Virus record (IMG/VR): IMGVR_UViG_3300015610_002171 | Reading direction: 5' to 3' (one strand) | DNA length: 20,000 nucleotides | Source: an uncultured virus (IMG/VR IMGVR_UViG_3300015610_002171) | Lineage: Duplodnaviria; Heunggongvirae; Uroviricota; Caudoviricetes | Shown: in pieces, positions 1-17,981 of the stretch | Position numbering within the stretch: position 1 is the first letter of the stretch | Layout of the letters: each line of letters begins with the position of its first letter | Made by a program: the position numbers and the translations under genes | Notes under the pieces: model-generated | What the model saw: only the letters and a program-made list of their open reading frames with translations | The model's database searches: none | What the model was told of the DNA's origin: nothing

Positions 1-242
1 GGCAAGATATTGCGTATATGGCTACTTTAATAGCCTTCTCTAATTCAAGATCTAATTTTGCGAAATGTTTGATTTTAAATGTTAAAATCATTTAATGGTA
101 ACAGTATATTGCAAATGACAAATAAATGTTAGCCAAAAAAAATCGTACAAATAAGATCAATCAAACCCTCCACCTCAATCTCAATCTGTTGGGGCACTAA
201 AAAACCAAGAATGGACTAGAAACCATTTAAAAAACTATAGAA

Positions 243-305
243 CTCTATGTGGTTTAACGGCAAAACATACCCAAATCCTCGGTTCAAGTCCGAGGCATAG
301 AGCCA
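243..305 (+). ncRNA. tRNA-like RNA lacking an anticodon arm
   Basis: Acceptor CTCTATG/CATAGAG ending CCA; D-arm GTTT-AACGGCA-AAAC; T-arm CTCGG-TTCAAGT-CCGAG; only ~10 unpaired nt (ATACCCAAAT) between the D- and T-arms. Confidence 0.7.
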
Positions 306-306
306 A

Positions 307-693
307 ATGCCTGATTCAAAAAGACAAAAGAGAAAACTCAAGGGCGACTTTCTTAAAACAAAAGAAAGAAACAAAACCAAACAAAGAACTTTCGATAAAG
401 TCAAAAAGGCGCAAGAAGAACTAAAAACAAAACCAACAACAACCCTCTGGTTCCAAGGATACTTACTAGAGGTTGAAGCTCACGATAAAAATTGGTTCCC
501 CGACCATAACAATATCTTTATTGGAAGAACCAAACGCGGATACAAACTTCTCCAGACTTTGTATTCTTCAAGCGGATTAATTGCCTTTCCTTATGAATTT
601 GGACCAGTCGCAAACACCTTCTCTCCAAAGAGCGATATTGTTGTTCTAAAAGTTAAAAACATATTAAAAGAAAAAACTTTAAGAAAAAAGTAA
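307..693 (+). CDS. hypothetical protein, basic N-terminus
   Basis: 128-aa ORF on the dominant strand. Confidence 0.65.
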   Translation: MPDSKRQKRKLKGDFLKTKERNKTKQRTFDKVKKAQEELKTKPTTTLWFQGYLLEVEAHDKNWFPDHNNIFIGRTKRGYKLLQTLYSSSGLIAFPYEFGPVANTFSPKSDIVVLKVKNILKEKTLRKK

Positions 694-743
694 AGTATAC
701 TACTATTTAACTTCTACCCTCTCACAAAAAATAATCAAGCAAG

Positions 744-771
744 TTGACAGACGAGCAAGACGAGTTAAAGT
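744..771 (+). promoter_or_regulatory. sigma70-like promoter upstream of tRNA array
   Basis: TTGACA-16 nt-TAAAGT. Confidence 0.5.
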
Positions 772-840
772 GAAGGGGCAACAAGAAAACAATCCGAAAA
801 ATGTTCGGAAAGGGTCTTTGACAACATTAAGTGAAACTTA

Positions 841-873
841 TGGCTGCGGCAAGTGCGATACTTGCCGCAGCCA
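841..873. repeat. perfect 14-bp GC-rich inverted repeat
   Basis: TGGCTGCGGCAAGT-GCGAT-ACTTGCCGCAGCCA. Confidence 0.85.
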
Positions 874-882
874 AACATATAA

Positions 883-955
883 AGGTTCTTAACTCAGTTG
901 GTAGAGTAGCTGGCTTTTAACTAGTTAGTCGTGAGTTCAAATCTCACAGAACCTA
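883..955 (+). tRNA. tRNA-Lys(UUU)
   Basis: AGGTTCT/AGAACCT acceptor; GCTGG-CTTTTAA-CTAGT anticodon arm; TTCAAAT T-loop. Confidence 0.92.
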
Positions 956-965
956 TAAAATCAAA

Positions 966-1037
966 GGAGTATTAGTCAAGTGGTTATGACACTGGCTTGT
1001 CACGCCAGAATCACGAGTTCAATTCTCGTATACTCCG
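966..1037 (+). tRNA. tRNA-Asp(GUC)
   Basis: GGAGTAT/ATACTCC with G73; CTGGC-TTGTCAC-GCCAG. Confidence 0.92.
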
Positions 1038-1069
1038 ATACCTTTCATAAACTTTCAGGAGGCTAGTAG

Positions 1070-1129
1070 ATGAAAAAAATGACAATAAACATGTCGGAAA
1101 AAGGAATATTTTCTTGTTCTGAGTGGTAA
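1070..1129 (+). CDS. possible 19-aa small peptide MKKMTINMSEKGIFSCSEW
   Basis: Perfect SD AGGAGG at 1057-1062, 7 nt before ATG. Confidence 0.35.
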   Translation: MKKMTINMSEKGIFSCSEW

Positions 1130-1138
1130 ACACCACAT

Positions 1139-1210
1139 GATCCTTTAGTTTAAGTAGAACCTGATCTGTCCAAGATCAAAGTTTTGGTGCAAATCCAAAA
1201 GGGATCACCA
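1139..1210 (+). tRNA. atypical tRNA, anticodon UCC (Gly?) with G33
   Basis: GATCCTT/AGGGATC-A-CCA; TGATC-TGTCCAA-GATCA; short D-loop; TGCAAAT T-loop. Confidence 0.7.
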
Positions 1211-1244
1211 AGTTGGTTAACGAATTGATTTGTTAATCAAGTAA

Positions 1245-1319
1245 CGCAGAATAGAGAAGTGGAAACTCATTTGGTTCATGCCCAAAAGATCGCAAGTTCG
1301 AATCTTGCTTCTGCTACCA
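1245..1319 (+). tRNA. tRNA-Met(CAU), initiator-like
   Basis: C1:T72 mismatch; TTTGG-TTCATGC-CCAAA; A-CCA end. Confidence 0.88.
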
Positions 1320-1436
1320 AATCTTGAAACCTAGCAGGTTGGGTTTCAAGTGTCTCTAATAACCTGTAAGGTCTGGGATTTAACCGCGGATATAAACCTT
1401 GGCTGCCGTAGTGGCAGTTAAATTATATCCAAAATA

Positions 1437-1505
1437 AAAGTGGGCCATAATCAAACTTACTTCTAAAGTACATCTTCACAACTAGTTTGATTGCTTTCCC
1501 ATTTT
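1437..1505 (+). ncRNA. repeated structured RNA, copy 1 (Y-RNA-like candidate)
   Basis: AAAGTGGG-CCAT-AATCAAACT-TACTTCTAAA...CT-AGTTTGATT-GCTTT-CCCATTTT. Confidence 0.7.
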
Positions 1506-1533
1506 GCCGCATTTATGCGGCTTTGAAGAGTTA

Positions 1534-1621
1534 GCGGAAATAAGGAAACTTTCTGTTTGCTGCGAAAACGCAGCTTTAAAGAAACTGAGTGTTACGGGTT
1601 CGAGTCCCGTTTTCCGCTCCA
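1534..1621 (+). ncRNA. tRNA-like RNA with Gly-type acceptor and replaced D/anticodon region
   Basis: GCGGAAA/TTTCCGC-T-CCA; T-arm ACGGG-TTCGAGT-CCCGT; central GCTGCG-AAAA-CGCAGC hairpin instead of a 7-nt anticodon loop. Confidence 0.65.
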
Positions 1622-1693
1622 TACAAGGCCATGAAGAAACTTACTTCTAAAAATTCAAAGGGTGAAAAACTAGTTTCTTCGCTTTCCTTGTAT
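1621..1693 (+). ncRNA. repeated structured RNA, copy 2
   Basis: ATACAAGG-CCAT-GAAGAAACT-TACTTCTAAA...CT-AGTTTCTTC-GCTTT-CCTTGTAT. Confidence 0.7.
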
Positions 1694-1709
1694 AATCTTT
1701 CATTTTATT

Positions 1710-1828
1710 GTGTATATGGCTAAAATTGGAATAAGCAAGAGAATGGGCCTTGAACCTAAAAAGGTGGGCAAGAGCGACTAAATTCCATCAACTCTGTCGC
1801 CATAACAGTTCGAATCTGTTTATACACA
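1710..1828 (+). ncRNA. tRNA-like RNA with greatly expanded anticodon arm
   Basis: GTGTATA/TATACAC acceptor; D-arm GCT..TGG..AGC; AGAG..ATGG-[~38 nt]-CCAT..CTCT; T-arm AACAG-TTCGAAT-CTGTT. Confidence 0.65.
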
Positions 1829-1914
1829 AACGATATTTGCAACTAAACCTAGTTGCAAGTTCTGATTAACTTCGTCAAGGTTAATACGTCGCGGGGACCG
1901 TATTCCGCTCCAAT

Positions 1915-1986
1915 GCGAAGATAGCTCAACGGCAGAGCACGCCCAATAAGGTAGGTATGGTTGTTCAATTCAACCTCTTTGCGCCA
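1915..1986 (+). ncRNA. tRNA-like RNA with shortened, degenerate anticodon arm
   Basis: GCGAAGA/TCTTTGC-G-CCA; canonical D-arm GCTC..GAGC and T-arm GGTTG-TTCAATT-CAACC; only 20 nt between the arms, with a weak GCC/GGT stem. Confidence 0.65.
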
Positions 1987-2059
1987 GAGTCGATCTTCTA
2001 GAAGTTAGGAAATGGTTTCGAGGACCATAACGTAGGTGCAAATCCTGCTCGATTCACCA
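1987..2059 (+). tRNA. atypical tRNA, apparent anticodon CGA without the Ser long variable arm
   Basis: GAGTCGA/TCGATTC-A-CCA; ATGGT-TTCGAGG-ACCAT; 3-nt variable loop; TGCAAAT T-loop. Confidence 0.6.
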
Positions 2060-2168
2060 CCAGTTCTGACGCTGCCCTTAGCTAGAGAACATAAATGGGA
2101 ATAAGGGTAAAACGACCAGGGGTTTCTGTTTCTTTAACGTCTGGGTGAAAATCGGGAACTCTTTCTTC

Positions 2169-2204
2169 TTTGAAGGAAAGAAAAGATCCTCGTGAGAGAA
2201 ACAA
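2169..2204 (+). repeat. 36-nt direct repeat, copy 1
   Basis: TTTGAAGGAAAGAAAAGATCCTCGTGAGAGAAACAA. Confidence 0.9.
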
Positions 2205-2208
2205 GCTA

Positions 2209-2284
2209 GGGCTATGGGACTGCATAGGGTGGTCGCCTGTTTTGCACACAGGACAGCAGTTTGGAGCATTACCAAAATAGTCCA
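2209..2284 (+). tRNA. tRNA-Ala(UGC) with non-canonical T-loop
   Basis: GGGCTAT/ATAGTCC with G3:U70 and A73; CCTGT-TTTGCAC-ACAGG; T-loop AGCATTA. Confidence 0.75.
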
Positions 2285-2408
2285 TTTTATTCTCAACAAC
2301 GCAAATTTTACGTCAAGAGATAACCCTTCGTTCGCCAACCAGGAAACCTTTTACGGTTTGAGAAAATCACTGATAATACGAAGTTAAATAACACAGAAGG
2401 CGGCCAAA

Positions 2409-2481
2409 CTGAGAAGGAGGCGTTAGAGTAGCCGATACGCTTTGGATGCGTATAGTTTGAGTTCAATTCTCAATTCTCAGA
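2409..2481 (+). tRNA. tRNA-Pro(UGG)
   Basis: CTGAGAA/TTCTCAG-A; TACGC-TTTGGAT-GCGTA; TTCAATT T-loop. Confidence 0.8.
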
Positions 2482-2498
2482 TCAACAGTCGAGGTTTT

Positions 2499-2534
2499 TT
2501 TGAAGGAAAGAAAAGATCCTCGCGAGAGAAACAA
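2499..2534 (+). repeat. 36-nt direct repeat, copy 2
   Basis: TTTGAAGGAAAGAAAAGATCCTCGCGAGAGAAACAA (1 mismatch to copy 1). Confidence 0.9.
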
Positions 2535-2538
2535 ATAT

Positions 2539-2612
2539 GGTTCCTTAGCTCAATTGGTTAGAGCGCTTGTTTGTTAAACAAGGGGTTTTCGGTTCAAGTC
2601 CGAAAGGTTCCG
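2539..2612 (+). tRNA. tRNA-Asn(GUU)
   Basis: CTTGT-TTGTTAA-ACAAG; canonical D- and T-arms; acceptor GGTTCCT/AGGTTCC has two U:U mismatches. Confidence 0.82.
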
Positions 2613-2646
2613 CTATATGAAATAAAAAAATCAAGTTGAGAAAACA

Positions 2647-3000
2647 ATGAGACTATACCTTGCAACTTTTATTATGGTTGACAGCAAAATCAAACCAGAG
2701 ATTTGCCCAGAAGACAATGTTAAACTTTATGGTATTTTTGAAAAAGAGGCAACAGCTATAGAAGTAATTGTTGAAGATATTCTTCAAGATAGGCTTGTAA
2801 AAAAAGCCATTACCGAACCAATTGAAACCCAATTAAAAAACATTGGGAGCTTTAAAGAGCTTTTGGCTTTTATGAAACAACATGATTGCTTTGAGCATCT
2901 GATGCCAGATCCATTTAGAGAAATTTATGGTGGATTTAATGTTAAAGAAATTGAGCTGGGCGAAATACTCGATGAATCTTTTGTTAAGTTTGGAAATTGA
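2647..3000 (+). CDS. hypothetical protein (local paralog family)
   Basis: 117-aa ORF; GIFEKEATAIEV and SFKELLAF motifs shared with other ORFs here. Confidence 0.75.
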   Translation: MRLYLATFIMVDSKIKPEICPEDNVKLYGIFEKEATAIEVIVEDILQDRLVKKAITEPIETQLKNIGSFKELLAFMKQHDCFEHLMPDPFREIYGGFNVKEIELGEILDESFVKFGN

Positions 3001-3015
3001 GATTAAATAAAATAA

Positions 3016-3474
3016 ATGATCGGAATCAATAAAATGGAAAATGATTTATACACATTGCACTACACTTCTTCTTTTGATAGGGCCGTTTATCTTGGAACAT
3101 TTTCTTCTGAATTAATCGCTCTTGATGTAGTCAAGGAATGCATTGAAAATGACCTTATTTTTTTTACTGCCAGAAATCTTAGATTAAGAGATACATATCT
3201 TTCTACCAATATTGGGAATCTTTCCGTTTTAGAAAAGGCAGACCTTATGCTTAAGGATCTAAAACAAGAGTTTAAAAAAACACTCCCTTCACTTGAAAGC
3301 TATAATTTATTGTTAAAAAATAAAGATTATTTGTCTTTGTTAAATCAGCAAAAAAAGTTTGTCATAACAAGACATAAGATTAATGAAATTATAAGTGAGT
3401 TTAAAACATCAGGAGAAGAGTTTGGGTACGGTTCCGCTAATTCAATAACAAGAAGGAGTTTGAATAATGTATAA
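3016..3474 (+). CDS. hypothetical protein (local paralog family)
   Basis: 152-aa ORF; GTFSSELIALDV motif. Confidence 0.75.
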   Translation: MIGINKMENDLYTLHYTSSFDRAVYLGTFSSELIALDVVKECIENDLIFFTARNLRLRDTYLSTNIGNLSVLEKADLMLKDLKQEFKKTLPSLESYNLLLKNKDYLSLLNQQKKFVITRHKINEIISEFKTSGEEFGYGSANSITRRSLNNV

Positions 3475-3859
3475 TGGTATAATACCACCACCACCAGGAT
3501 TAGAATGGCAAGAAGATAAAACAGCAGCAACAATTGGATTTGTGGTTTGTGCTGAGCAATTTTTAATGCAAAATCCAAAGTTTGAGTATGCTTCTGAACT
3601 TGAAAAGTTCATTAGCGAATTAAAGGTAGGAAAACAAGTTCTAACAAAATGGTTTACGATTCAGGATTTTATTAATACGTTTAAAACGTATATTGTATTT
3701 TCAAGTGCCCCAGGTGTTGGTAATTTTCCTTTAGCAGTGTTTAAAACTTTAGAAAAGGCAAAGACTTTCACAGGAGGAGATTGCTACTTTCAAATTGGGG
3801 AAGTTGTTTGGGATGGAGAGGGTAGGATTCCATTAGTTCGAGATTGCAAGATAATTTAA
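3467..3859 (+). CDS. hypothetical protein
   Basis: 130-aa ORF; AGGAG SD; overlaps the upstream stop. Confidence 0.75.
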   Translation: MYNGIIPPPPGLEWQEDKTAATIGFVVCAEQFLMQNPKFEYASELEKFISELKVGKQVLTKWFTIQDFINTFKTYIVFSSAPGVGNFPLAVFKTLEKAKTFTGGDCYFQIGEVVWDGEGRIPLVRDCKII

Positions 3860-3887
3860 TAGAAGCATTCGATTAAAAATTTGGAGG

Positions 3888-3916
3888 TTGACAACTTGCG
3901 CTGCGAGTTTTACACT
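3888..3916 (+). promoter_or_regulatory. sigma70-like promoter
   Basis: TTGACA-17 nt GC-rich-TACACT. Confidence 0.6.
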
Positions 3917-3938
3917 CTGTCCCCGAAAAGAGATAGCC

Positions 3939-4583
3939 GTGTACAATAGAATCCTCGCCAAAAAAATCTTTGAGACTGAACGTAAAAAAGATCTTGATGA
4001 ATTGGTGAGAGATTGGTCAAACTGTTGTTTTTCTAATAGTTCAAACAAAGACCAGGAAATTTTATCAGAAGAAGAAAAAATCGAGAGAGAAATCTCTCTC
4101 TCAATGGAAGAGGGTTTGATTAAGGCAATTAAAGAAAAAACGGCAGTTGTATACTGTTTATTTCTCGAAGAAAATAACAAACATGTTTTTAATATGGCTG
4201 TTGAAAGTGTCGAGCGTGCTAGAGAATTGGTAAATCAAAATTCCTTTTTGTCGATCGGTATATTGTTTGTTGATAAAATTAAACCAATGCAACCACCACA
4301 AGCACAAGATTGTTTCTTTTGTAATGGAGAACCGATGGTTAAAACTTTGCCAAATGATTTTAAATCACAGGTAATGGATTGGACAGATTATGATGTTGCC
4401 GAATTTTTTCTTGGAATCTCATTGGGTATATTTGAACCTAATGTAGATTTTTTGGATTGTAAAGATGTTATATGGTCCAACACTCCCATAGGAAACCTTT
4501 TGTGTGATATTATAAATTGCATGGTAAAAGAAGGCGTTCTTCTAAAAGAAGAAGGCAAAATTATGTGGGGTCTTCAAAAGTGA
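3939..4583 (+). CDS. hypothetical protein
   Basis: ORF 3888-4583; the TTG at 3888 coincides with the -35 box, so the in-frame GTG at 3939 is preferred. Confidence 0.7.
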   Translation: MYNRILAKKIFETERKKDLDELVRDWSNCCFSNSSNKDQEILSEEEKIEREISLSMEEGLIKAIKEKTAVVYCLFLEENNKHVFNMAVESVERARELVNQNSFLSIGILFVDKIKPMQPPQAQDCFFCNGEPMVKTLPNDFKSQVMDWTDYDVAEFFLGISLGIFEPNVDFLDCKDVIWSNTPIGNLLCDIINCMVKEGVLLKEEGKIMWGLQK

Positions 4584-4616
4584 AATAAGACGAATAAAAA
4601 AAGAATACGATGTTTT

Positions 4617-4693
4617 GGTCCCATCGTCTAAATGGCAAAGGACACATCCCTTTCAAGGATGAAATGCGAGTTCAATCCTCGCTGGGATCACCA
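4617..4693 (+). tRNA. tRNA-Glu(UUC)
   Basis: GGTCCCA/TGGGATC-A-CCA; CATCC-CTTTCAA-GGATG. Confidence 0.93.
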
Positions 4694-4725
4694 TTATGGT
4701 TAAGCAAAACAACCATAATACAACA

Positions 4726-4796
4726 AAACAGGCCATAAAGAAACTTACTTCTAAAAATTCAAGGTATGATAATCTAGTTTCTTTGCTTTCCTGTTT
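4726..4796 (+). ncRNA. repeated structured RNA, copy 3
   Basis: AAACAGG-CCAT-AAAGAAACT-TACTTCTAAA...CT-AGTTTCTTT-GCTTT-CCTGTTT. Confidence 0.7.
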
Positions 4797-4851
4797 CTTC
4801 TCAACCTTCAAACCGAAGAAAAAATTTTAGTCTTAGCAATTAATCTATTCT

Positions 4852-4920
4852 CTCGAATTCTTGTCTAATACTAGTGAAAGACAATGGATGCACAAGGTGC
4901 AAATCCTTGGTTCGGGACCA
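4852..4920 (+). ncRNA. tRNA-like RNA lacking an anticodon arm
   Basis: CTCGAAT/GTTCGGG-A-CCA; single arm TTGTCT..AGACAA; 8-nt linker; T-arm CAAGG-TGCAAAT-CCTTG. Confidence 0.6.
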
Positions 4921-4950
4921 TTCAAAGGTATGCCTTTGAAAACATAAAAT

Positions 4951-5063
4951 GGGCAGATAGTTTAAGCGGGCAATCGCGTAGATAAAACATCTCCACCGTT
5001 TTGAGATCGTATCAACAGCAAACGTCCGAGAAGTTGAAGATGCGAATACTTCTCTGCTCACCA
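4951..5063 (+). ncRNA. tRNA-like RNA with inserts in the D-loop and anticodon arm
   Basis: GGGCAGA/TCTGCTC-A-CCA; D-stem GTTT/AAAC enclosing GCGG-GCAA-TCGC; TCTC-[34 nt]-GAGA; T-arm GAAG..TGCGAAT..CTTC. Confidence 0.65.
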
Positions 5064-5073
5064 AAAGGTAAAA

Positions 5074-5316
5074 ATGAACATACTTGGAATAAAAACACTT
5101 TTCTATAAAGGGAAAGAGTGGAAATTTGAATGGGGCTGCGGGGCCGACAACATACAAAACATTGAGTTAAAAGAATTAGAGTTTTGTCCAGATAAAATTG
5201 TTAAAGCAGAATGCTCGCAGTCGTATGGTTGCACAGGACAACCTCCATGTTTGCATAAAGGAATTATTGCAAAAAGAAGATCTGACAATAAAATGTTTTT
5301 AATTTGTGTTGAATAA
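5074..5316 (+). CDS. small Cys-rich hypothetical protein
   Basis: 80-aa ORF; AAGG SD. Confidence 0.6.
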   Translation: MNILGIKTLFYKGKEWKFEWGCGADNIQNIELKELEFCPDKIVKAECSQSYGCTGQPPCLHKGIIAKRRSDNKMFLICVE

Positions 5317-5332
5317 TAAACTATTTATCTTT

Positions 5333-5950
5333 ATGAAAATAAAGAATTTAATTTATGGGTCAGACTTAGACGAAGGAATCATAGCAAATTTATCAAACAA
5401 AATAAAACAATCGTTCGGGTCGTCTGATAGTTCTTCTGAAAAACTAGTTACAGATCAAAACGGAGCAAAAGTTTTCGTAAAAGGAAAAAAGATTCACAGA
5501 GAAGGCGGTCCCGCAGTATTAGAAACAGATGGAACTCTTAAATGGATGGTAAATGGAAAATACCACAGAGAGGATGGCCCAGCAATTATTAGTCCAGACG
5601 GAACTGCACATTGGATGATTAATGGAAAACACCATCGTGAGAATGGTCCAGCCTATGTTGGTTTTATTTCTGGTAGAAATTGGGAACTTAAATGGATTAA
5701 AAATGGAGTATTAAATAGATATCCAGAACCAGCGGTTGTAAGTTACGCAGATACTCCAGTTTTTTATTATAATGGTAAACGAGTTTCAAATTTAGAAGGT
5801 TTAAGAACATTAGAAAAAACTGGAGTAAAATGGGAAGCTGATGAAGATTATAAAAATTATGGACCTGGCGTAACAAAAAATTTATGGAATCAAGAATACG
5901 AAAATCATAAAAGAGATTTTAGTGTTAAAGCTAGCAGTCCTTATAGATAA
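5333..5950 (+). CDS. HRxxGPA-repeat (MORN-like) protein
   Basis: Tandem HREGGPAV / HREDGPAI / HRENGPAY..W..NG repeats, typical of large viruses; ATG 5333 follows AAACTATTTAT. Confidence 0.8.
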   Translation: MKIKNLIYGSDLDEGIIANLSNKIKQSFGSSDSSSEKLVTDQNGAKVFVKGKKIHREGGPAVLETDGTLKWMVNGKYHREDGPAIISPDGTAHWMINGKHHRENGPAYVGFISGRNWELKWIKNGVLNRYPEPAVVSYADTPVFYYNGKRVSNLEGLRTLEKTGVKWEADEDYKNYGPGVTKNLWNQEYENHKRDFSVKASSPYR

Positions 5951-5967
5951 ACTATATATTTAAAGTT

Positions 5968-6447
5968 ATGAATTTAAAAAAATACATCTTTGAAGATTGC
6001 CCCACGCCAGAATCTCCATACCAACAATTAAATCAGATGATTACATCGACAGCACAAAGCTTACCTCAAACCGATTACGGCAAATTTGAACTATATTGTT
6101 ATGGTTTTGATAAAAAAGCTAATGTCCATAAATTTGATATAAGAACTGGAGCGAACGATACGGCAGGAAAAAATCCTTCTGCTGTTTTGTCGGTAGGAAT
6201 AAAGCAAGAACAAGATAAAACTTATACTGTGAGTGCGACAGGTTATACTGTTTTGGGTGCCGCAGGCAACCATGCTCAAGGTAAACGAGTTCAAAAAATT
6301 ACAAAAAACAAAATTCAATTTAGTGAATTAGATTCTTCAATTCATGAACTATCGTTTAAAACAGCCAATGAACTGGTGGCCTTATTGCCAAAAGTCGGAC
6401 TTGTTCAGAAAACAGTAAATGCGGTAAAAAATTTTATGAAAAAATAA
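5968..6447 (+). CDS. hypothetical protein
   Basis: 159-aa ORF preceded by AAACTATATAT. Confidence 0.75.
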   Translation: MNLKKYIFEDCPTPESPYQQLNQMITSTAQSLPQTDYGKFELYCYGFDKKANVHKFDIRTGANDTAGKNPSAVLSVGIKQEQDKTYTVSATGYTVLGAAGNHAQGKRVQKITKNKIQFSELDSSIHELSFKTANELVALLPKVGLVQKTVNAVKNFMKK

Positions 6448-6495
6448 TAAGATTTTATTTAGTTTGTGTTAAATACTTAAAGAGTAACTATATGA

Positions 6496-6662
6496 AACCA
6501 TAACCAAGAGGTTTTAGTTGAAAATCTATAACAATATATAATGAAAGTTTGCTGCTAACAACACGCAAGCTATAAAAACCAAACTATCTGAAAGGGATAG
6601 TAAGGGCAACAAGCAAGTAGTTATATAAAAGTATAGACAAGTAAACTAGAATAGTAATGGTT
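6496..6662 (+). ncRNA. candidate rod-shaped ncRNA (~170 nt)
   Basis: Nested helices AACCAT/ATGGTT, TTTTAGTT/AACTAGAA, TCTATA/TATAGA, TATATAAT/GTTATATA, GTTTGC/GCAAGT; no ORF. Confidence 0.5.
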
Positions 6663-6686
6663 ATCAAACTAGTATAGTGAAAATTT

Positions 6687-6772
6687 ACTTATGTAGTGTA
6701 ACGGGAGCACAGCGGAAAAAGCATTGCGCGTTAGGGAACCCGCCAGTAAAGGTTCGAATCCTTTCATAAGTA
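6687..6772 (+). ncRNA. tRNA-like RNA with 24-nt anticodon loop
   Basis: ACTTATG/CATAAGT; D-arm GTGT-AACGGGA-GCAC; GCGG-[24 nt]-CCGC; T-arm AAAGG-TTCGAAT-CCTTT. Confidence 0.7.
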
Positions 6773-6778
6773 AAGTTT

Positions 6779-6849
6779 GCCCTTTTAGTTCAACGGTAGA
6801 ACGCTAGTTTCTAAAACTGGATGAATAGGTTCAATTCCTATAAAGGGCG
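6779..6849 (+). tRNA. amber suppressor tRNA (anticodon CUA)
   Basis: GCCCTTT/AAAGGGC-G; CTAGT-TT-CTA-AA-ACTGG; canonical D- and T-arms. Confidence 0.88.
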
Positions 6850-6857
6850 CAAAATCA

Positions 6858-7271
6858 ATGAAGTTTCAAGAATATGTGAAATACTCTAATTGGTTCTCAG
6901 GAAAGGCTGACTCTGATTTTGAGTTAAAATTTAAAATAAAAGAAATAAGCAACCTTTCTGCAGAAAAAGCATTTTTTAAAATTGACACACTTGGAGAAAC
7001 ACCAGAAATTTCAAGTGCTGAAAAACAAAGTTTACTTTCGGCTTTAAAAGGTAAAGCTGCTTTTAACTTATGTATCAAACAAGTTTCTGAGCAAATTAAA
7101 ATTGCTCATAAAGAAAAATGGATTTGGATATTAGGAAACATTTCATTTGATGAAAAAATTAAAGATCTTATCTTGTATCAAGAAGTAATACAGAATTTAT
7201 TAAATTGTGATAATCGACAACTTTTTTTGACAGCTTGGAAACAATCAAGAGTCGAAAATAATTTAAAGTAA
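6858..7271 (+). CDS. hypothetical protein
   Basis: 137-aa ORF. Confidence 0.7.
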   Translation: MKFQEYVKYSNWFSGKADSDFELKFKIKEISNLSAEKAFFKIDTLGETPEISSAEKQSLLSALKGKAAFNLCIKQVSEQIKIAHKEKWIWILGNISFDEKIKDLILYQEVIQNLLNCDNRQLFLTAWKQSRVENNLK

Positions 7272-7281
7272 AATAACAAAT

Positions 7282-7306
7282 GGAAGTGTGGCCGAGTGGT
7301 CTAAAG
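7282..7306 (+). pseudogene. 5' fragment of a tRNA-Ser-like gene
   Basis: GGAAGTGTGGCCGAGTGGTCTAAAG = acceptor strand plus D-arm of a class II tRNA, truncated just before tnpB. Confidence 0.6.
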
Positions 7307-7312
7307 TAATAA

Positions 7313-8482
7313 ATGATAATTAAATCTTTCAAATATAGATTATATCCAACAATCGAACAACAAAAAGTTTTTGAAGAATGGATTTTACAGTTGAAAAATT
7401 TGTGGAACATAGCAAACAAACAAAGATTTTGGATGCTAAGTAAAATTCCAATCCAAAAAAGTTCAAGAACGGGTTTTGAAATTTGGCCGTCAAATAGAAA
7501 TCAAATATGTAAAAGAACAGGAAATAAAATTTATGGTCAAGAATACGAGGCGCAAGAATTAGCAAGGTTAGATCCAAATGGAATAGGTATTTTACCAGCT
7601 AAAATAAGAAATTCTTGTCTAGAACAATTAGATAAATCCTGGAAAAGGTTTTATAAAAACGTATCCAAAAAACCAAAGTTTAAAACAAAAAAAGATAAAA
7701 TTTCGTTTACAATAAAAAGTAATTGCAATTCTTTGTTGAAAAACATTAATAATGGGAAAATTCAAATTATTAAACTTGGATTTGTTAAAGTCAAAATACA
7801 TAGAAAATTAGAAGGAAGACCATTATATTTTACAATTACAAAAGATTCAATAGGTGAATGGTATGTTTCTATTACTTGTGAAATAATAAATTTCATAAAA
7901 AAAGAATCTAATCAAATAATTGGAATTGATAGAGGTGTTAAAAACATTGTTGCAGATTCAAATGGAAAAATAATACCAAGTATTAAAATACTAGAAAAAA
8001 GTAAGTTAAAACTTAACAAATTGAGAAGAAAATTTTCAAAGCAGAAAAAAGGATCAGAAAATTCTAAAAAAACATTATTAAAAATAAATAAGTTAAACAT
8101 TAAGCAAATTAATAGAAGAAATGATTTTTATCATAAAATAACCAGTTATTATTCAAATAATAATTCAACTATTGTTCTTGAAGAATTGAAAATTAAAGAA
8201 ATGACAAAAAAAGGTTCTAAAAAAACAAAACTTAATTCTTTAATAAGATCTTCTGCATGGAAATTATTAGAAAATCAATTTAAGTATAAGTTGAATTGGT
8301 ATCAAAAAAATGGAAAATTAATATTAATTAAACCATATAATACTTCAAGAATTTGTTTTAAATGCAAATATTGCGAAAAAACTAATAGAAAAGAAGACGT
8401 TTTTAAATGTTTAAAATGTGGGCATGAAGATCATGCCGATATAAATGCCGCAAAAAACATTTTGTTTTTTGGGACTAAATGA
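7313..8482 (+). CDS. tnpB: RNA-guided endonuclease TnpB (IS200/IS605 family)
   Basis: N-terminal KSFKYRLYPT; RuvC-I GIDRG; RuvC-II IVLEEL; Zn finger TSRICFKC..CLKCG; RuvC-III ADINAAKNI. Confidence 0.93.
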   Translation: MIIKSFKYRLYPTIEQQKVFEEWILQLKNLWNIANKQRFWMLSKIPIQKSSRTGFEIWPSNRNQICKRTGNKIYGQEYEAQELARLDPNGIGILPAKIRNSCLEQLDKSWKRFYKNVSKKPKFKTKKDKISFTIKSNCNSLLKNINNGKIQIIKLGFVKVKIHRKLEGRPLYFTITKDSIGEWYVSITCEIINFIKKESNQIIGIDRGVKNIVADSNGKIIPSIKILEKSKLKLNKLRRKFSKQKKGSENSKKTLLKINKLNIKQINRRNDFYHKITSYYSNNNSTIVLEELKIKEMTKKGSKKTKLNSLIRSSAWKLLENQFKYKLNWYQKNGKLILIKPYNTSRICFKCKYCEKTNRKEDVFKCLKCGHEDHADINAAKNILFFGTK

Positions 8483-8650
8483 ATACCGTTGGTTTAACGG
8501 AGAAACCTACAATATGCTGTAGGAACTGAAAAGTTTTTCAAAAGAAATGCTATGTCTGTGGAGATTTTTGATAAAAAATCAATGAAACAGAAAGAAGAAT
8601 TAGTAATAATCTTCCTTTAAATCAATGTTCGTTGATTTAAACATAAAACA
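8483..8650 (+). ncRNA. putative TnpB omega/reRNA scaffold and right end
   Basis: ACCGTTGG..ACGG and CTGTGGAG...ATGAAACAG elements resemble TnpB 3' scaffolds; terminal hairpin TTTAAATCAA/TTGATTTAAA at 8616-8641. Confidence 0.55.
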
Positions 8651-8687
8651 CGAATCTTTCTGATTCCGCTAAGAAAAGAAAACAAAT

Positions 8688-9050
8688 ATGATGATAGCAT
8701 TTGATATACTCAAACTAGATAGACTAACCGATGCTCAATTATTTGAATTTTGTATGGCAGTTGGGGCAGACCTTGAGAATCTCTGCTCTTATGTGAAATT
8801 GTTAAAATCTAACATTGGAGAAGGGGAGGCATCTTTTGAAGGGTGCTGGGGAACTTATAATTCCAATGAAATGGAAAAGTTTAAAGATTTGGTTGAGTAT
8901 CCAACAGCGATATCTAAACTTCAACAAATATTAAAAGAAAATCCGAAAAAACATTTTGTTTCTATTGCCGTTTCTCCAAGTGAAGTTTCTTATCAGATTT
9001 TCAACAGAGAAGATGGAATCAAACATTTAATAAAACATTTTGGAGTTTAA
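8688..9050 (+). CDS. hypothetical protein
   Basis: 120-aa ORF. Confidence 0.7.
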   Translation: MMIAFDILKLDRLTDAQLFEFCMAVGADLENLCSYVKLLKSNIGEGEASFEGCWGTYNSNEMEKFKDLVEYPTAISKLQQILKENPKKHFVSIAVSPSEVSYQIFNREDGIKHLIKHFGV

Positions 9051-11942: not shown

Positions 11943-12013
11943 TCGGGTATCATCTAACAGTAGGATGACAGACTTTGACTCTGTTCGTGAAAGTGCGAAT
12001 CTTTCTACTCGAA
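11943..12013 (+). tRNA. tRNA-Gln(UUG)
   Basis: TCGGGTA/TACTCGA; ACAGA-CTTTGAC-TCTGT; TGCGAAT T-loop. Confidence 0.85.
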
Positions 12014-12022
12014 CTAATATAT

Positions 12023-12096
12023 GAAAACGTAGCTCGATTGGATACAGAGAAGCGGTTGTGAACCGCTATAAACGGGTTCAATTCCCGTACGTTCTA
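12023..12096 (+). tRNA. tRNA-His(GUG), somewhat atypical
   Basis: AGCGG-TTGTGAA-CCGCT; T-arm ACGGG-TTCAATT-CCCGT; possible G-1; one acceptor mismatch. Confidence 0.72.
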
Positions 12097-12641: not shown

Positions 12642-12815
12642 ATGGCAAAAAAAACATCTACAACAAAGAAATCAATTCCTGCTTCAATCGCAGAAAAAGT
12701 GGCAAAGACAGCGATAAAACGTATTGAGAGAAACATTGTTTCTTCAATTGTCGATGCTGCTTTTGGAGCAGTTATTAATGGTGTCGCAAACATTTCCAAA
12801 AAGAAATCAAAATGA
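12642..12815 (+). CDS. small basic hypothetical protein
   Basis: AAGGA SD before ATG 12642 (MAKKTSTTKK...). Confidence 0.7.
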   Translation: MAKKTSTTKKSIPASIAEKVAKTAIKRIERNIVSSIVDAAFGAVINGVANISKKKSK

Positions 12816-13117
12816 TTAAACTGTTTGACTACTCGTGTGTACCTGCTGATGTGTTTAATTTAACTCCAAAAGAAAAAGACTTTATTTGGAGTAAAGTTAA
12901 AGAAGCAGGGATTAAAGTAGAGTTAGATACAACACATGAGATACATGTGATTACAGTGAATTGTGAAGAAATTAAAGAATCTGGATTATATAACGACGAT
13001 TATCCATCTTTGTTTTTTGTGGCTTTGTATCGGGAAATTTTTGTTAATAAAACGCGAAATTATATATTTGATAATGTCGAAAGAGACATTTCTCTTTTTA
13101 GAGAAAAAGTGGCTTAG
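12812..13117 (+). CDS. hypothetical protein (ends in TAG in frame with the next gene)
   Basis: 101-aa ORF; ATGA overlap. Confidence 0.7.
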   Translation: MIKLFDYSCVPADVFNLTPKEKDFIWSKVKEAGIKVELDTTHEIHVITVNCEEIKESGLYNDDYPSLFFVALYREIFVNKTRNYIFDNVERDISLFREKVA

Positions 13118-13120
13118 ACT

Positions 13121-13915
13121 ATGAAATGGATAATCCAATCAAACTTCCTAAAGGATGACAATATTGGAAAACTTGCATCCTTTTTGGATGTTCATAAAAT
13201 TCCTTGGGAACAAATTCAAATAGTTCCATTTGATGACTCTGAAATAACAGAAGTGTCGTCAGATGGAATTACTGTATTTTATGGATCTGTGGGATTAGCT
13301 CGCAGGGTTGCAAAAAACAACAAATGGAAACCTGGAGTTTGGTTTGAACCATCAAAGTTCAGTTTTCAAGGAATCTTAAATGGCTATAAAGAGCATTGTT
13401 TAAATGCTGATAGTCTGGTTCTTTCTCTTGAGGAGTTTGTTTCACTTAATGGCATCAAAGACGACAAAGTTTATTTTATGAGACCTGTTGAAGATAATAA
13501 ATCTATTACAGGGGCTTGCTTTACTGTAAAGCAAATAAAAGAACTTGTTGATGGTTTGAGGGAGGCAGATAAAACAAACAGGCTCCAACTTGGGTCTGTT
13601 ATGCAGTTTGCCTCCCCAAAAGAGATCGTTAAAGAAACAAGACATTTTATTGTGGATGGTAAAGTAAGTACCTCATCAAATTATGGTCACGGCAAACTTC
13701 TAGAAGAACCATCAGAAGATGATATTTCTTTTGCTCAGAAGATGGTTGAATTATACCAACCAGCAGATGTTTTTACTTTGGATACTTGTATCCTTGAAGA
13801 TGGTACACGAAAACTTGTTGAGTTAAATTGCTTTAACTCTTCTGGTTTTTATTGGGCAGATGTTCACAAGTTAACGAAAGATATAACAACCTTCTTGAAA
13901 AAGAAATATCCATAA
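13121..13915 (+). CDS. ATP-grasp domain protein (R2K / DUF4343-like)
   Basis: FMRPVEDNKSITG, ETRHFIVDGKV and FTLD..KLVELNCFNSSGFY motifs. Confidence 0.8.
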   Translation: MKWIIQSNFLKDDNIGKLASFLDVHKIPWEQIQIVPFDDSEITEVSSDGITVFYGSVGLARRVAKNNKWKPGVWFEPSKFSFQGILNGYKEHCLNADSLVLSLEEFVSLNGIKDDKVYFMRPVEDNKSITGACFTVKQIKELVDGLREADKTNRLQLGSVMQFASPKEIVKETRHFIVDGKVSTSSNYGHGKLLEEPSEDDISFAQKMVELYQPADVFTLDTCILEDGTRKLVELNCFNSSGFYWADVHKLTKDITTFLKKKYP

Positions 13916-17965: not shown

Positions 17966-17981
17966 GGAAAAAGAAAAAGAA

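Follow-up and report, generated by a model that had tools for sequence, protein, structure and literature searches.

Several tRNA-framed genes without a canonical anticodon arm in the rearranging tRNA island of a wastewater phage

The 20,000-nt stretch of an uncultured wastewater phage analyzed here (IMGVR_UViG_3300015610_002171; referred to as the window) contains seven or eight tRNA-derived genes that have both ends and the corner of a tRNA, with the decoding arm lost or replaced. Their anatomy, tRNA ancestry, and non-canonical anticodon region are demonstrated: what has been kept is the tRNA 'top half', consisting of acceptor stem and T arm, together with a canonical D arm completing the elbow in three cases and an encoded CCA in five. 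We give about even credence to the view that these are tRNA-framed non-decoding RNAs, predicted to be excised by the tRNA maturation enzymes, which recur in a fast-rearranging island and are dispensable as single copies. The elements (m1 to m7, in order of position) form a graded series that leads from a minihelix at 841-871 via the armless m1 to the insert-bearing m2, m3, m6, and m7.

All elements and their neighbors described in this and the following paragraph are on the plus strand. Element m1 (243..305) is a 63-nt tRNA without an anticodon arm, with an acceptor stem at 243-249/296-302 (or 244-250/295-301 with G302 as discriminator), a D arm at 252-266, a linker of about 10 nt, a T arm at 278-294, and CCA at 303-305, and it is called neither by ARAGORN nor by Rfam. 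An ORF begins with ATG at 307, 1 nt past the end of m1, and its likely Shine-Dalgarno sequence, GAGG, sits within the T/acceptor strand of m1. The preliminary description did not include the element at 841..871, 11 nt upstream of tRNA-Lys, a perfect hairpin of 12-13 bp with a loop of 7 nt that resembles a T loop; in shape, it corresponds to a 'minihelix' of acceptor plus T stem. The 88-nt m2 (1534..1621) is a tRNA-Gly derivative with an acceptor stem at 1534-1540/1611-1617, a T arm at 1594-1610, U73, and CCA at 1619-1621. Its last 40 nt (1582-1621) are 85% identical to an annotated phage tRNA-Gly (E 1e-3), and its D region, anticodon loop, and hairpin are all reworked, with a weak hairpin at the D position and a hairpin of 6 bp with a 4-nt loop (1559-1574) at the position of the anticodon arm. 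Copies of a structured repeat flank m2, the first (1438..1504) 29 nt upstream, with an outer stem of 7 bp, an inner stem of 10 bp, and an invariant 5' part of the loop, and the second (1622..1692) starting 1 nt past the CCA of m2 and ending 17 nt before m3; a third copy (4726..4796) lies 55 nt upstream of m5.

The 119-nt m3 (1710..1828) has an acceptor stem at 1710-1716/1821-1827, a partial D arm, a T arm at 1804-1820, and no CCA; its middle comprises about 87 nt with two hairpins, and the sole ARAGORN call of m3, below threshold, is Cys(gca) with an insert of 43 nt. An orphan tRNA-Gly-like 3' end without 5' partner follows at 1890..1912, where comparison by eye with the m2 3' end indicates a T-stem remnant, an acceptor strand, and CCA. 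In the 72-nt m4 (1915..1986), the acceptor stem (1915-1921/1976-1982) includes G3.U70 and is accompanied by a canonical D arm (1924-1938), a T arm (1959-1975), G73, and CCA, and the anticodon region spans 19 nt, in which about 3 bp enclose a loop of 6 nt; ARAGORN reports m4 only when its threshold is lowered, giving an 'anticodon' of two bases. Without any spacer, the CCA end of m4 at 1986 is followed by the next tRNA from 1987 on. The 69-nt m5 (4852..4920; A73, CCA) combines an acceptor stem with two G-U pairs (4852-4858/4910-4916) and a T arm (4893-4909) with the loop TGCAAAT; a single hairpin of 5-6 bp with a 12-14-nt loop (4861-4884) replaces the D and anticodon arms, and neither Rfam nor ARAGORN calls this element. 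The 113-nt m6 (4951..5063; acceptor stem 4951-4957/5053-5059, A73, CCA) has a long hairpin at the D position, a 5-bp hairpin with a 9-nt loop, and a long variable region, and its T arm (5036-5052) is imperfect, with an A.A mismatch at 53:61 or else a 13-nt loop; ARAGORN does not arrive at a tRNA after any single deletion from m6. An ORF starts at 5074, 10 nt past the CCA of m6. Finally, the 86-nt m7 (6687..6772) has an acceptor stem at 6687-6693/6765-6771, a canonical D arm at 6696-6710, a T arm at 6748-6764, no CCA, and an anticodon stem interrupted by an insert of about 14 nt, with an 8-nt loop; it ends 6 nt upstream of an amber-suppressor tRNA. Judged from the sequence, the tight packing of m4 with a tRNA, m2 with a repeat, m7 with the suppressor tRNA, and m1 and m6 with ORF starts would fit co-processing.

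The frame is real and strand-specific. A scanner demanding a 7-bp acceptor stem (no mismatch, at most two G-U pairs) and, directly following, a 5-bp T stem with the loop TNCNANN gave 17 matches on the plus strand of the window and none on the minus strand, compared with 0.77 on average and never more than 4 on both strands together in 100 Markov shuffles. Ten of these matches are in nine canonical tRNAs and six in claimed elements (at 244, 1534, 1710, 1915, 4852, and 6687); the remaining one, at 17981, is AT-rich and dubious. A T-arm-only scan with G53-C61 required found 18 matches on the plus strand and none on the minus strand (shuffles, 0.06 per strand), namely 11 canonical tRNAs, six claimed elements, and, as the sole match outside known elements, the hairpin at 841-871, which also appears as a 31-nt match when short lengths are allowed. 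Both scans missed m6, and the well-paired acceptor stems and T arms that had been ascribed to seven elements thus hold for six, the flawed T arm of m6 being the exception; the 7-bp acceptor stems are free of mismatches in all seven (G-U allowed) and the T stems in six. ARAGORN identifies 11 ordinary tRNAs, all on the plus strand, among which the elements are scattered as described before, and at default settings it calls none of the seven, an outcome that had been anticipated. The Rfam tRNA gathering score is reached by three (m7, 49.2 bits, with 24 nt in place of the expected 9; m4, 39.8 bits, with the anticodon arm skipped; m2, 29.6 bits), in all of which the anticodon arm is skipped or stretched, and the other four have no Rfam tRNA match even at E≤10. 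Neither ARAGORN at default settings nor Rfam finds a tmRNA in the window. The preliminary description was right that the anticodon arm is absent, shortened, or replaced, as a 5-bp/7-nt arm is present in none of the seven, that five encode CCA (m1, m2, m4, m5, and m6, not m3 and m7), and that the elements differ in sequence, with only generic T arms in common. Its statement that most keep a D arm was generous, as our reading of the sequence finds a canonical one in three (m1, m4, and m7), a partial one in m3, and an atypical one or none in m2, m5, and m6.

The top half is the part of a tRNA recognized by bacterial RNase P, by the CCA and 3'-end trimming enzymes, and by the enzymes that modify the T loop, and the elements should therefore be cut from a transcript like tRNAs. 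From this enzymology, we infer that they would be excised from a polycistronic tRNA-mRNA transcript. Among the roles proposed in the preliminary description, a scaffold released by RNase P processing fits the anatomy best. In the engineered 'tRNA scaffold', a cargo RNA is placed where the anticodon arm would be, and acceptor, T, and D arms secure processing and stability; the elements resemble this laboratory construct in the replaced anticodon arm, and their inserts would be the putative cargo. A natural precedent for this anatomy is rnaC of phage T4 (species 1 RNA, 139 nt), likewise part of a tRNA cluster and encoded on the same strand as the tRNAs there. Its canonical T arm immediately precedes a 3' strand paired with a 7-mer farther upstream; rnaC is annotated as a small stable RNA, and ARAGORN at default settings does not call it a tRNA. 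We know of no function for rnaC. T4 has one such gene compared with seven or eight here, the middles appear unrelated, and the 3' end of rnaC in the record is ...GUA, in contrast to the CCA of five elements; in T4 rnaD, no T arm is evident. In XacN1, like Xoo-sp13 a jumbo phage, we found seven unannotated acceptor-plus-T-arm elements on the tRNA strand alongside 28 ARAGORN tRNAs. Like the elements described here, those of XacN1 and Xoo-sp13 have an acceptor stem, a T arm, often CCA, and non-canonical middles, spanning 64-149 nt, and are found between tRNA genes, in the same orientation as these. Two elements from one unannotated XacN1 gap, one belonging to the seven and the other found only by ARAGORN with introns allowed, have conserved counterparts in Xoo-sp13, where the acceptor stem is changed on both sides in each of them and the T stem likewise in one. 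We saw no sequence relationship to the elements of the window, whose conservation, unlike that of the XacN1/Xoo-sp13 pair, is judged against one near-identical strain. The consulted part of the XacN1 paper gives 29 tRNA-like sequences per repeat, one of them a pseudogene, and does not mention these elements. The combination of acceptor stem and T arm without anticodon is also shared with the tRNA-like domain of tmRNA and with aminoacylatable minihelices. G3.U70 is the main alanine identity mark, also used by tmRNA, and is present in m4, which differs in having G73, not A73; tag reading frame and pseudoknots are lacking, and one G.U at 3:70 in a total of 18 stems could easily be coincidental.

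A single relative of about 95% identity, present in public runs, permits a strain comparison, for which the figures derive from the differences listed; its RNA-library contigs may contain DNA and cannot prove transcription. At the two shared loci, m2 and m4, this relative has no ordinary tRNAs, and both elements remain non-tRNA by ARAGORN default. In m2, five substitutions and a 12-nt insertion all fall within 1543-1567, the hairpin keeping its stem and changing its loop, and acceptor stem, T arm, and 3' end (35 nt) are unchanged, as are 61 nt when 1568-1593 is included. The changes in m4 comprise two in its middle and a third in the T stem that preserves the pair (U-A to U.G). How strongly this argues for conservation depends on the choice of the neutral yardstick. 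For the assessable stretch 1350-1690, all 17 substitutions and four indels of the piece are listed. By the local spacers, with 10 substitutions in 172 assessable nt (5.8%), the probability of no change is about 0.12 for the 35 nt of m2 and about 0.03 for the 61 nt. Of the 10 substitutions listed for the ORF at 307-693, compared on another contig, eight affect third codon positions (about 18% of such positions in 501-633), and by this yardstick the probability of the unchanged m2 frame is about 0.001.

The same comparison feeds a serious rival explanation, which we consider less likely: the elements could be functionless tRNA pseudogenes or recombination products of a hyper-variable island, with frames that are intact owing to youth and to the way the elements were selected. 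Indeed, m3 is absent in the relative (joint 1721->1912), through an imprecise deletion that spared the first 12 nt of m3, a pattern in line with neutral loss, and m7 is absent in relatives (joints 6475->6766 and 6475->6753). Furthermore, 3449-4844, with two ORFs, tRNA-Glu, and one repeat copy, is swapped for 352 other bases, 211 bases are added at 1078/1087, and 6946-8678 is missing. At the tRNA-Asp locus of the relative, 29 nt are deleted internally and G53-C61 is disrupted by a G-to-C change, which is ordinary decay in progress. The middles are unlike in each element, and by a rough estimate about half of random 10-30-nt deletions in a tRNA gene leave acceptor stem and T arm intact. The described concentration of damage on one arm is in part an effect of ascertainment, as elements with a broken frame would go unlisted and three or four fragments with other damage are present: the orphan 3' end at 1890-1912, a piece at 7279-7304 (92% to a tRNA-Ser 5' part), an orphan tRNA 3' part at 8651-8672, and the candidate remnant at 2217-2284 with a perfect anticodon arm and an odd T loop. 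Against mere relics, however, stand the mismatch-free acceptor stems of all seven and T stems of six despite repeated reworking of several middles, the changes in the relative that avoid the m2 and m4 frames or keep the pair, the ratio of orphans to tRNAs of 6:11 (eight orphans with m6 and the minihelix), which is far above 1:38 in Phosso and 1:8 in T4, and the compensated stems of the comparable elements in XacN1 and Xoo-sp13.

It is improbable, in our view, that the top-half RNAs titrate host factors or defense toxins that bind the acceptor end, CCA, or elbow. Toxins that target the tRNA 3' end exist, five elements end in CCA, three have a full elbow (D loop with GG plus T loop), and the location is an accessory region of the phage; however, no defense or counter-defense gene was recognized adjoining the elements, and single copies are dispensable in the relative. 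The proposed decoys for anticodon nucleases are the worst fit among the suggested roles, because PrrC, RloC, and VapC recognize the anticodon stem-loop and the anticodon loop is precisely the missing part.

Even less probable is that m2, m3, and m7 are true decoding tRNAs, from which the extra hairpin is removed as an intervening sequence or in which the ribosome tolerates the expansion. With introns allowed, ARAGORN calls m7 at default threshold as Pro(ggg) with a 15-nt insert at 31/32, and in silico removal of 16 nt (1559-1574) from m2 or 14 nt from m7 yields ARAGORN scores of 109.7 and 117.5, within the range of the phage's own tRNAs (101.8-120.3) and equaled in one of 40 and none of 40 shuffled interiors, respectively, a test that is lenient because the shuffles also wreck the D arm. 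XacN1 also has a tRNA-Trp-like gene with a 33-nt insert. Yet Rfam finds no group I intron or other ribozyme, and the inserts, at 14-43 nt, are too short to hold one. Moreover, the window shows no splicing endonuclease, the inserts of m7 and m2 lie at 31/32 in the ARAGORN models and not at 37/38, and the resulting m7 loop has an A at position 33 or comprises 8 nt. For m3, no unique solution emerges, since many different deletions have similar scores, and insert length varies between strains (12 nt more in m2; in another variant of m7, one A more after 6715).

In conclusion, the elements are real and unable to decode, and they are a mixed, strain-variable set whose role as a decoy system is unproven. 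That they are tRNA-derived, non-decoding, and without a usable anticodon stem-loop agrees with the preliminary description, whereas its coherent 'system' or 'repertoire' is unsupported because the elements share no sequence apart from generic T arms, their middles are idiosyncratic, two of the seven are absent in the relative, and tRNA genes are deleted and shuffled. The strain comparison suggests that tRNA-framed non-decoding RNAs have originated more than once in a rapidly rearranging tRNA island, when internal sequence was deleted, inserted, or replaced, and that the frame may be retained as the middle diverges, single copies being dispensable. Their excision would punctuate the transcript and release stable small RNAs that end in CCA and could vary freely in the middle, and such RNAs would be a natural counterpart of the laboratory 'tRNA scaffold'.

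The seven elements described between positions 243 and 6772 (m1 to m7) are real, tRNA-derived and non-decoding, and our analyses show both their anatomy and their ancestry. A scan for 7-bp acceptor stems without mismatch, in which the 3' strand comes directly after a 5-bp T stem with a TNCNANN loop, gave 17 matches on the plus strand of the window and none on the minus strand, compared with 0.77 on average and at most 4 (both strands summed) in 100 Markov shuffles; the non-canonical tRNA-like elements of the preliminary description thus exist far beyond chance. Ten of the matches came from nine canonical tRNAs and six from m1 to m5 and m7 (at 244, 1534, 1710, 1915, 4852 and 6687), and the remaining one at 17981 was discounted as weak and AT-rich. 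A stricter scan for the T arm only, with 0.06 matches expected per strand, resulted in 18 matches on the plus and none on the minus strand, of which 11 were canonical tRNAs, six the elements already named and one an additional hairpin. ARAGORN identified 11 ordinary tRNAs, all on the plus strand (nine within 883-6850, two at 11943-12096), and its default run called none of the seven elements, as had been anticipated. The expectation of well-paired acceptor stems and T arms held for the 7-bp acceptor stem throughout (7/7 without mismatch, G-U allowed, m6 read from the sequence), and for the T arm with a 5-bp stem, 7-nt loop and G53-C61 in six elements; the T arm of m6 has either a mismatched A.A at 53:61 or, if paired in a different register, a loop of 13 nt. 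Most elements had been said to keep a D arm, which by reading of the sequence is canonical only in the three at 243, 1915 and 6687, whereas the encoded CCA in five of the seven was borne out. An anticodon arm with a 5-bp stem and a 7-nt loop (U33, purine 37) is found in none, in agreement with the original claim. The gathering threshold of the Rfam tRNA model RF00005 (29 bits) was reached by three elements (6687, 49.2 bits; 1915, 39.8; 1534, 29.6), and only with the anticodon arm skipped or stretched; the other four had no match to this model even at E<=10.

The elements, all on the plus strand, are seven different things rather than variants of a single one. In m1 (243-305), a canonical D arm and T arm are joined by about 10 nt in place of the anticodon arm and variable loop (about 22 nt). 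Its CCA ends 1 nt upstream of the ATG of ORF 307-693, and the likely ribosome-binding GAGG of this ORF lies within the T and acceptor strand of m1. The ORF is a real gene, as 8 of the 10 differences listed against a closely related strain fall at third codon positions. The second element, m2 (1534-1621), is a tRNA-Gly derivative with U73 and CCA, which over its last 40 nt shares 85% identity with annotated phage tRNA-Gly genes; bacterial tRNA-Gly contigs align at 1582-1621. Its positions 10-38 are reworked, and a hairpin at 1559-1574 with a perfect 6-bp stem and a 4-nt loop takes in the former 5' strand of the anticodon stem. In m3 (1710-1828), the D arm is partial, and the middle of about 87 nt holds two hairpins. 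Nearly a tRNA, m4 (1915-1986) has an anticodon region that is 2-3 nt short (about 3 bp, 6-nt loop), carries G3.U70, and is followed by the next tRNA without any spacer. This neighbor, a 73-nt tRNA at 1987-2059 with the Ser anticodon CGA (ARAGORN; 36.6 bits in Rfam), has no long variable arm, no GG in its D loop, and the T loop TGCAAAT. In m5 (4852-4920), a single hairpin with a 12-14-nt loop lies between acceptor and T arm, while m6 (4951-5063) combines a good acceptor stem and CCA with a long hairpin at the D position and a further hairpin of 5 bp that has a 9-nt loop. Finally, the D arm of m7 (6687-6772) is canonical, and an insert of about 14 nt splits its anticodon stem, the loop of which has 8 nt. 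None of the seven was seen to be a recent copy of the phage's own tRNAs, and blastn searches for the isotype ancestry of m4 and m7 gave only generic D-arm or T-arm matches (E >= 0.2).

We treat the window as part of an uncultured phage of bacteria. It is AT-rich (34% G+C), its sizeable ORFs are without exception on the plus strand, and a few of them match phage protein families. A blastn comparison with 50,697 phage records yielded no matching cultured phage, only generic tRNAs, and the same DNA was found in sequencing runs of 10 wastewater, activated-sludge and marine studies. Searches of viral_contigs with two proteins of the region gave no locus. The homologues obtained for ORF 5306-5950 belong to repeat-domain proteins and are not orthologues. 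A metagenome scan returned a single 1189-nt contig of the same phage. A sigma-70 promoter scan was uninformative (21 found, 21.0 expected), and none of the 14 terminators found (4.2 expected) helps account for the seven elements. The cluster also contains an amber-suppressor tRNA (anticodon CTA, 6779-6850). TAG is the stop codon of only 2 of the 32 plus-strand ORFs, and read-through of the TAG of ORF 12812-13117 leads in frame into an ATP-grasp ORF (13121-13915), so that the reading frames are compatible with a possible read-through fusion.

A strain with about 95% identity could be read from contigs of four public runs placed on 1-7200; it has about 150-fold depth in two RNA-labelled libraries and is partly present in a DNA run. 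Contigs of the RNA libraries (X17 and X18) span most of the region and can say nothing on transcription, ends or levels, and gaps in their coverage have no meaning. The comparison is among the differences listed, which lie more than about 30 nt inside the aligned pieces. This relative lacks 1722-1911, which is m3 beyond its first 12 nt together with the spacer, and it lacks 6476-6765, which contains m7, with 43 other bases instead. The DNA run has a similar joint in the m7 region (6475 to 6753), and in a further variant m7 is retained, its insert being longer by one A. Furthermore, 3449-4844 is swapped for 352 other bases, 211 additional bases are present at 1078/1087, and the TnpB cassette (6946-8678) is absent, with a loose end at 6945 leading to the sequence at 8689. 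The gene for tRNA-Asp (966-1037) has lost 29 nt (975-1003), which removes its D arm together with half of the anticodon arm (the 5' side), and the G at the G53 position is changed to C. The tRNA island is thus in rapid flux, with ordinary tRNA genes being gutted from inside, and two of the seven elements, m3 and m7, are dispensable. The island also has a direct repeat of 39 nt at 2166-2204 and 2496-2534, with 95% identity between the copies and the end of the second 4 nt upstream of tRNA-Asn. In the relative, one contig runs from 2501 back to 2181, with different sequence beyond the first copy, and tRNA cassettes may recombine at these repeats.

For m2, the list of differences is complete in the assessable part (17 substitutions and 4 indels, corresponding to the 17 substitutions and 16 gap letters of the aligned piece). 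Five substitutions and a 12-nt insertion all lie within 1543-1567, and there is no change in the 35 nt of the acceptor, T arm and 3' part, or in 61 nt if 1568-1593 is included; the loop of the m2 hairpin is altered and its stem retained. In m4, the middle has two changes, and a single change in the T stem leaves its pair intact. Rebuilt by script, the relative's m2 and m4 are still no tRNAs, and therefore the two loci that could be judged do not hold the ordinary tRNAs that the preliminary description had named as evidence against it. If the neutral rate is taken from the third codon positions in ORF 307-693 (about 18%, on a different contig with comparable depth), the probability of 0/35 changes is about 0.001; with the 5.8% of local spacers (10/172 nt), it is about 0.12, and that of 0/61 about 0.03. 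These values are suggestive of constraint on the frame of acceptor stem and T arm, for one relative and depending on the neutral rate chosen. That the elements are plain relics remains a strong explanation, and of the three features of a tRNA pseudogene, derivation from a tRNA gene and a missing part are present; the third would be a lack of constraint on the remainder, where the single relative suggests some.

The damage had been described as focused on one arm, and this argument is weakened by remnants that are damaged in other ways: a 3' end resembling that of tRNA-Gly at 1890-1912, a 5' part of tRNA-Ser at 7279-7304, a tRNA 3' part at 8651-8672, and the sequence 2217-2284. The tRNA-Ser part is 92% identical to tRNA-Ser of XacN1 and ends 8 nt before the tnpB ATG. 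The gene for the TnpB (OrfB_IS605) transposase (7313-8482) is thus bracketed by a tRNA 5' fragment and a tRNA 3' fragment (7279-8672). The 68-nt sequence 2217-2284 has a perfect 5-bp anticodon stem, a canonical loop with the Ala anticodon TGC and a 6-bp acceptor stem; its T loop is non-canonical, its D arm is shrunken, and ARAGORN calls it only at the 80% threshold. This sequence may represent a compact tRNA, or else a relic damaged in the converse way. A hairpin at 841-871, absent from the preliminary list, lies 11 nt upstream of the first tRNA of the cluster; with its perfect 12-13-bp helix and T-loop-like 7-nt loop, it has the shape of an acceptor/T minihelix, which is the extreme of the series.

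Repeats of about 71 nt lie just upstream of m2, m3 and m5 (1438-1504, 1622-1692 and 4726-4796, respectively). They fold into an outer stem of 7 bp and an inner stem of 10 bp, 7 of the 17 pairs are changed on both sides across the three copies, and the loop does not vary in its 5' part. In the relative, the substitutions among the differences listed are confined to the variable part of the loop. Rfam gave no match for the repeat, and an exact pattern derived from it had zero matches in viral_contigs; six loci found with a looser pattern were considered chance, as they had no flank similarity and no tRNAs. No target of the invariant loop was found, since the only perfect matches (3/11) are the repeats themselves. 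The shape may resemble that of phage RNase III processing sites, and the repeats are possibly processing hairpins or a small-RNA family.

A comparison with known phages was made using the same scanner. Beside its 8 tRNAs, T4 has a single orphan, by which we mean a match of acceptor stem and T arm that is no ARAGORN tRNA. This is rnaC (species 1, 139 nt), an annotated stable RNA in which a canonical T arm adjoins the 3' strand, whereas T4 rnaD has no T arm. Like rnaC, the elements of the window lie among phage tRNA genes and on the same strand as these, and they have the T arm at the 3' side and no anticodon arm. In the jumbo phage XacN1, the first 50 kb contain 28 ARAGORN tRNAs and 7 orphans of 64-149 nt, which are on the tRNA strand in unannotated gaps, several with a terminal CCA; the opposite strand has two scanner matches that have one T arm in common. 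Two elements from one XacN1 gap recur in the jumbo phage Xoo-sp13 (at 1872-2345), one being a scanner orphan and the other picked only by ARAGORN with introns allowed. In each of them, two acceptor-stem pairs are changed on both sides between the phages, and in one element this also applies to two T-stem pairs. The unannotated elements of XacN1 fall within 30282-47865, where 30282-30386 resembles a tRNA-Trp carrying a 33-nt insert. An 18-kb stretch of phage Phosso has 38 tRNAs and one orphan on the tRNA strand, and the ratio of orphans to tRNAs is highest in the window among the four genomes compared, which is a small sample. The tRNA-framed kind thus recurs and is at least sometimes conserved. 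The XacN1 paper reports 29 tRNA-like sequences per terminal repeat, one of them a pseudogene, and a term search of the SegB paper (PMC2330249) found no mention of the stable RNAs. Our literature search found no description of families of anticodon-less tRNA frames in phages.

The best-supported mechanism would be that the elements keep what the tRNA maturation enzymes need and could therefore be excised as CCA-ended small RNAs, whose processing and stability we infer. Excision would punctuate the tightly packed tRNA-mRNA transcript, and the middles between the frame parts could drift or hold inserts, with single copies being gained and lost. Besides plain relics, a role as decoys is possible, limited to factors recognizing the acceptor end or elbow. 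A minor alternative is that some of the elements are tRNAs with intervening sequences. With introns allowed, ARAGORN called m7 as tRNA-Pro with a 15-nt insert at 31/32, the only element to pass at the default threshold, and m3 as tRNA-Cys with a 43-nt insert at the 85% threshold. In a single-deletion scan, m2 without exactly its hairpin scored 109.7 and m7 without 14 nt 117.5, compared with 101.8-120.3 for the phage's own tRNAs; shuffled interiors reached these scores in 1/40 (m2) and 0/40 (m7) cases, and the shuffles destroy the D arm as well. However, many deletions of m3 score equally well, the insert positions are unusual, the loops left after insert removal are non-canonical, including that of m7 in the ARAGORN intron model, and insert lengths vary from strain to strain. 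Rfam revealed no ribozyme or group I intron, and inspection of m3 by eye found no bulge-helix-bulge motif.

Other RNA classes found no counterpart: neither the ARAGORN default nor Rfam detected a tmRNA, tmRNA calls at the ARAGORN 80% threshold were permuted and implausible, and the sole match to a bacterial Y RNA (YrlA; 818-935, 18.9 bits versus a gathering threshold of 69, E 3.4) overlaps none of the seven elements. The inserts were rejected as scars or miniature ends of the neighboring TnpB element, as they align to its ends no better than shuffles do (best case m2 versus the right end, p ~0.04 among 22 tests). Nothing supports a coordinated system, and decoys of anticodon nucleases do not fit.

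A wider reading, which we consider unlikely when all of its parts are taken together, would be that large phages maintain a class of tRNA-framed RNAs, from the minihelix via armless forms to forms with 15-90-nt inserts. These would use the host machinery for tRNA maturation and protection to become stable non-decoding RNAs, here nearly as many as true tRNAs, and would act with the covarying 71-nt hairpin RNAs as processing modules or as sponges of tRNA-end factors, and T4 rnaC would be the long-unexplained founding member of the class.

If the elements are relics, the window is a snapshot of the gain, gutting and loss of tRNA genes in a phage population, and it cautions against scoring "tRNA-like" matches as decoding capacity. 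If the frames are under selection, an acceptor stem and T arm without anticodon arm would become an annotation rule, for which XacN1 and Xoo-sp13 offer culturable test cases, and the T4 species 1 RNA would gain a context. Phage tRNA clusters would then encode more than decoders, and they would represent a reservoir of small RNAs that use the tRNA processing pathway.
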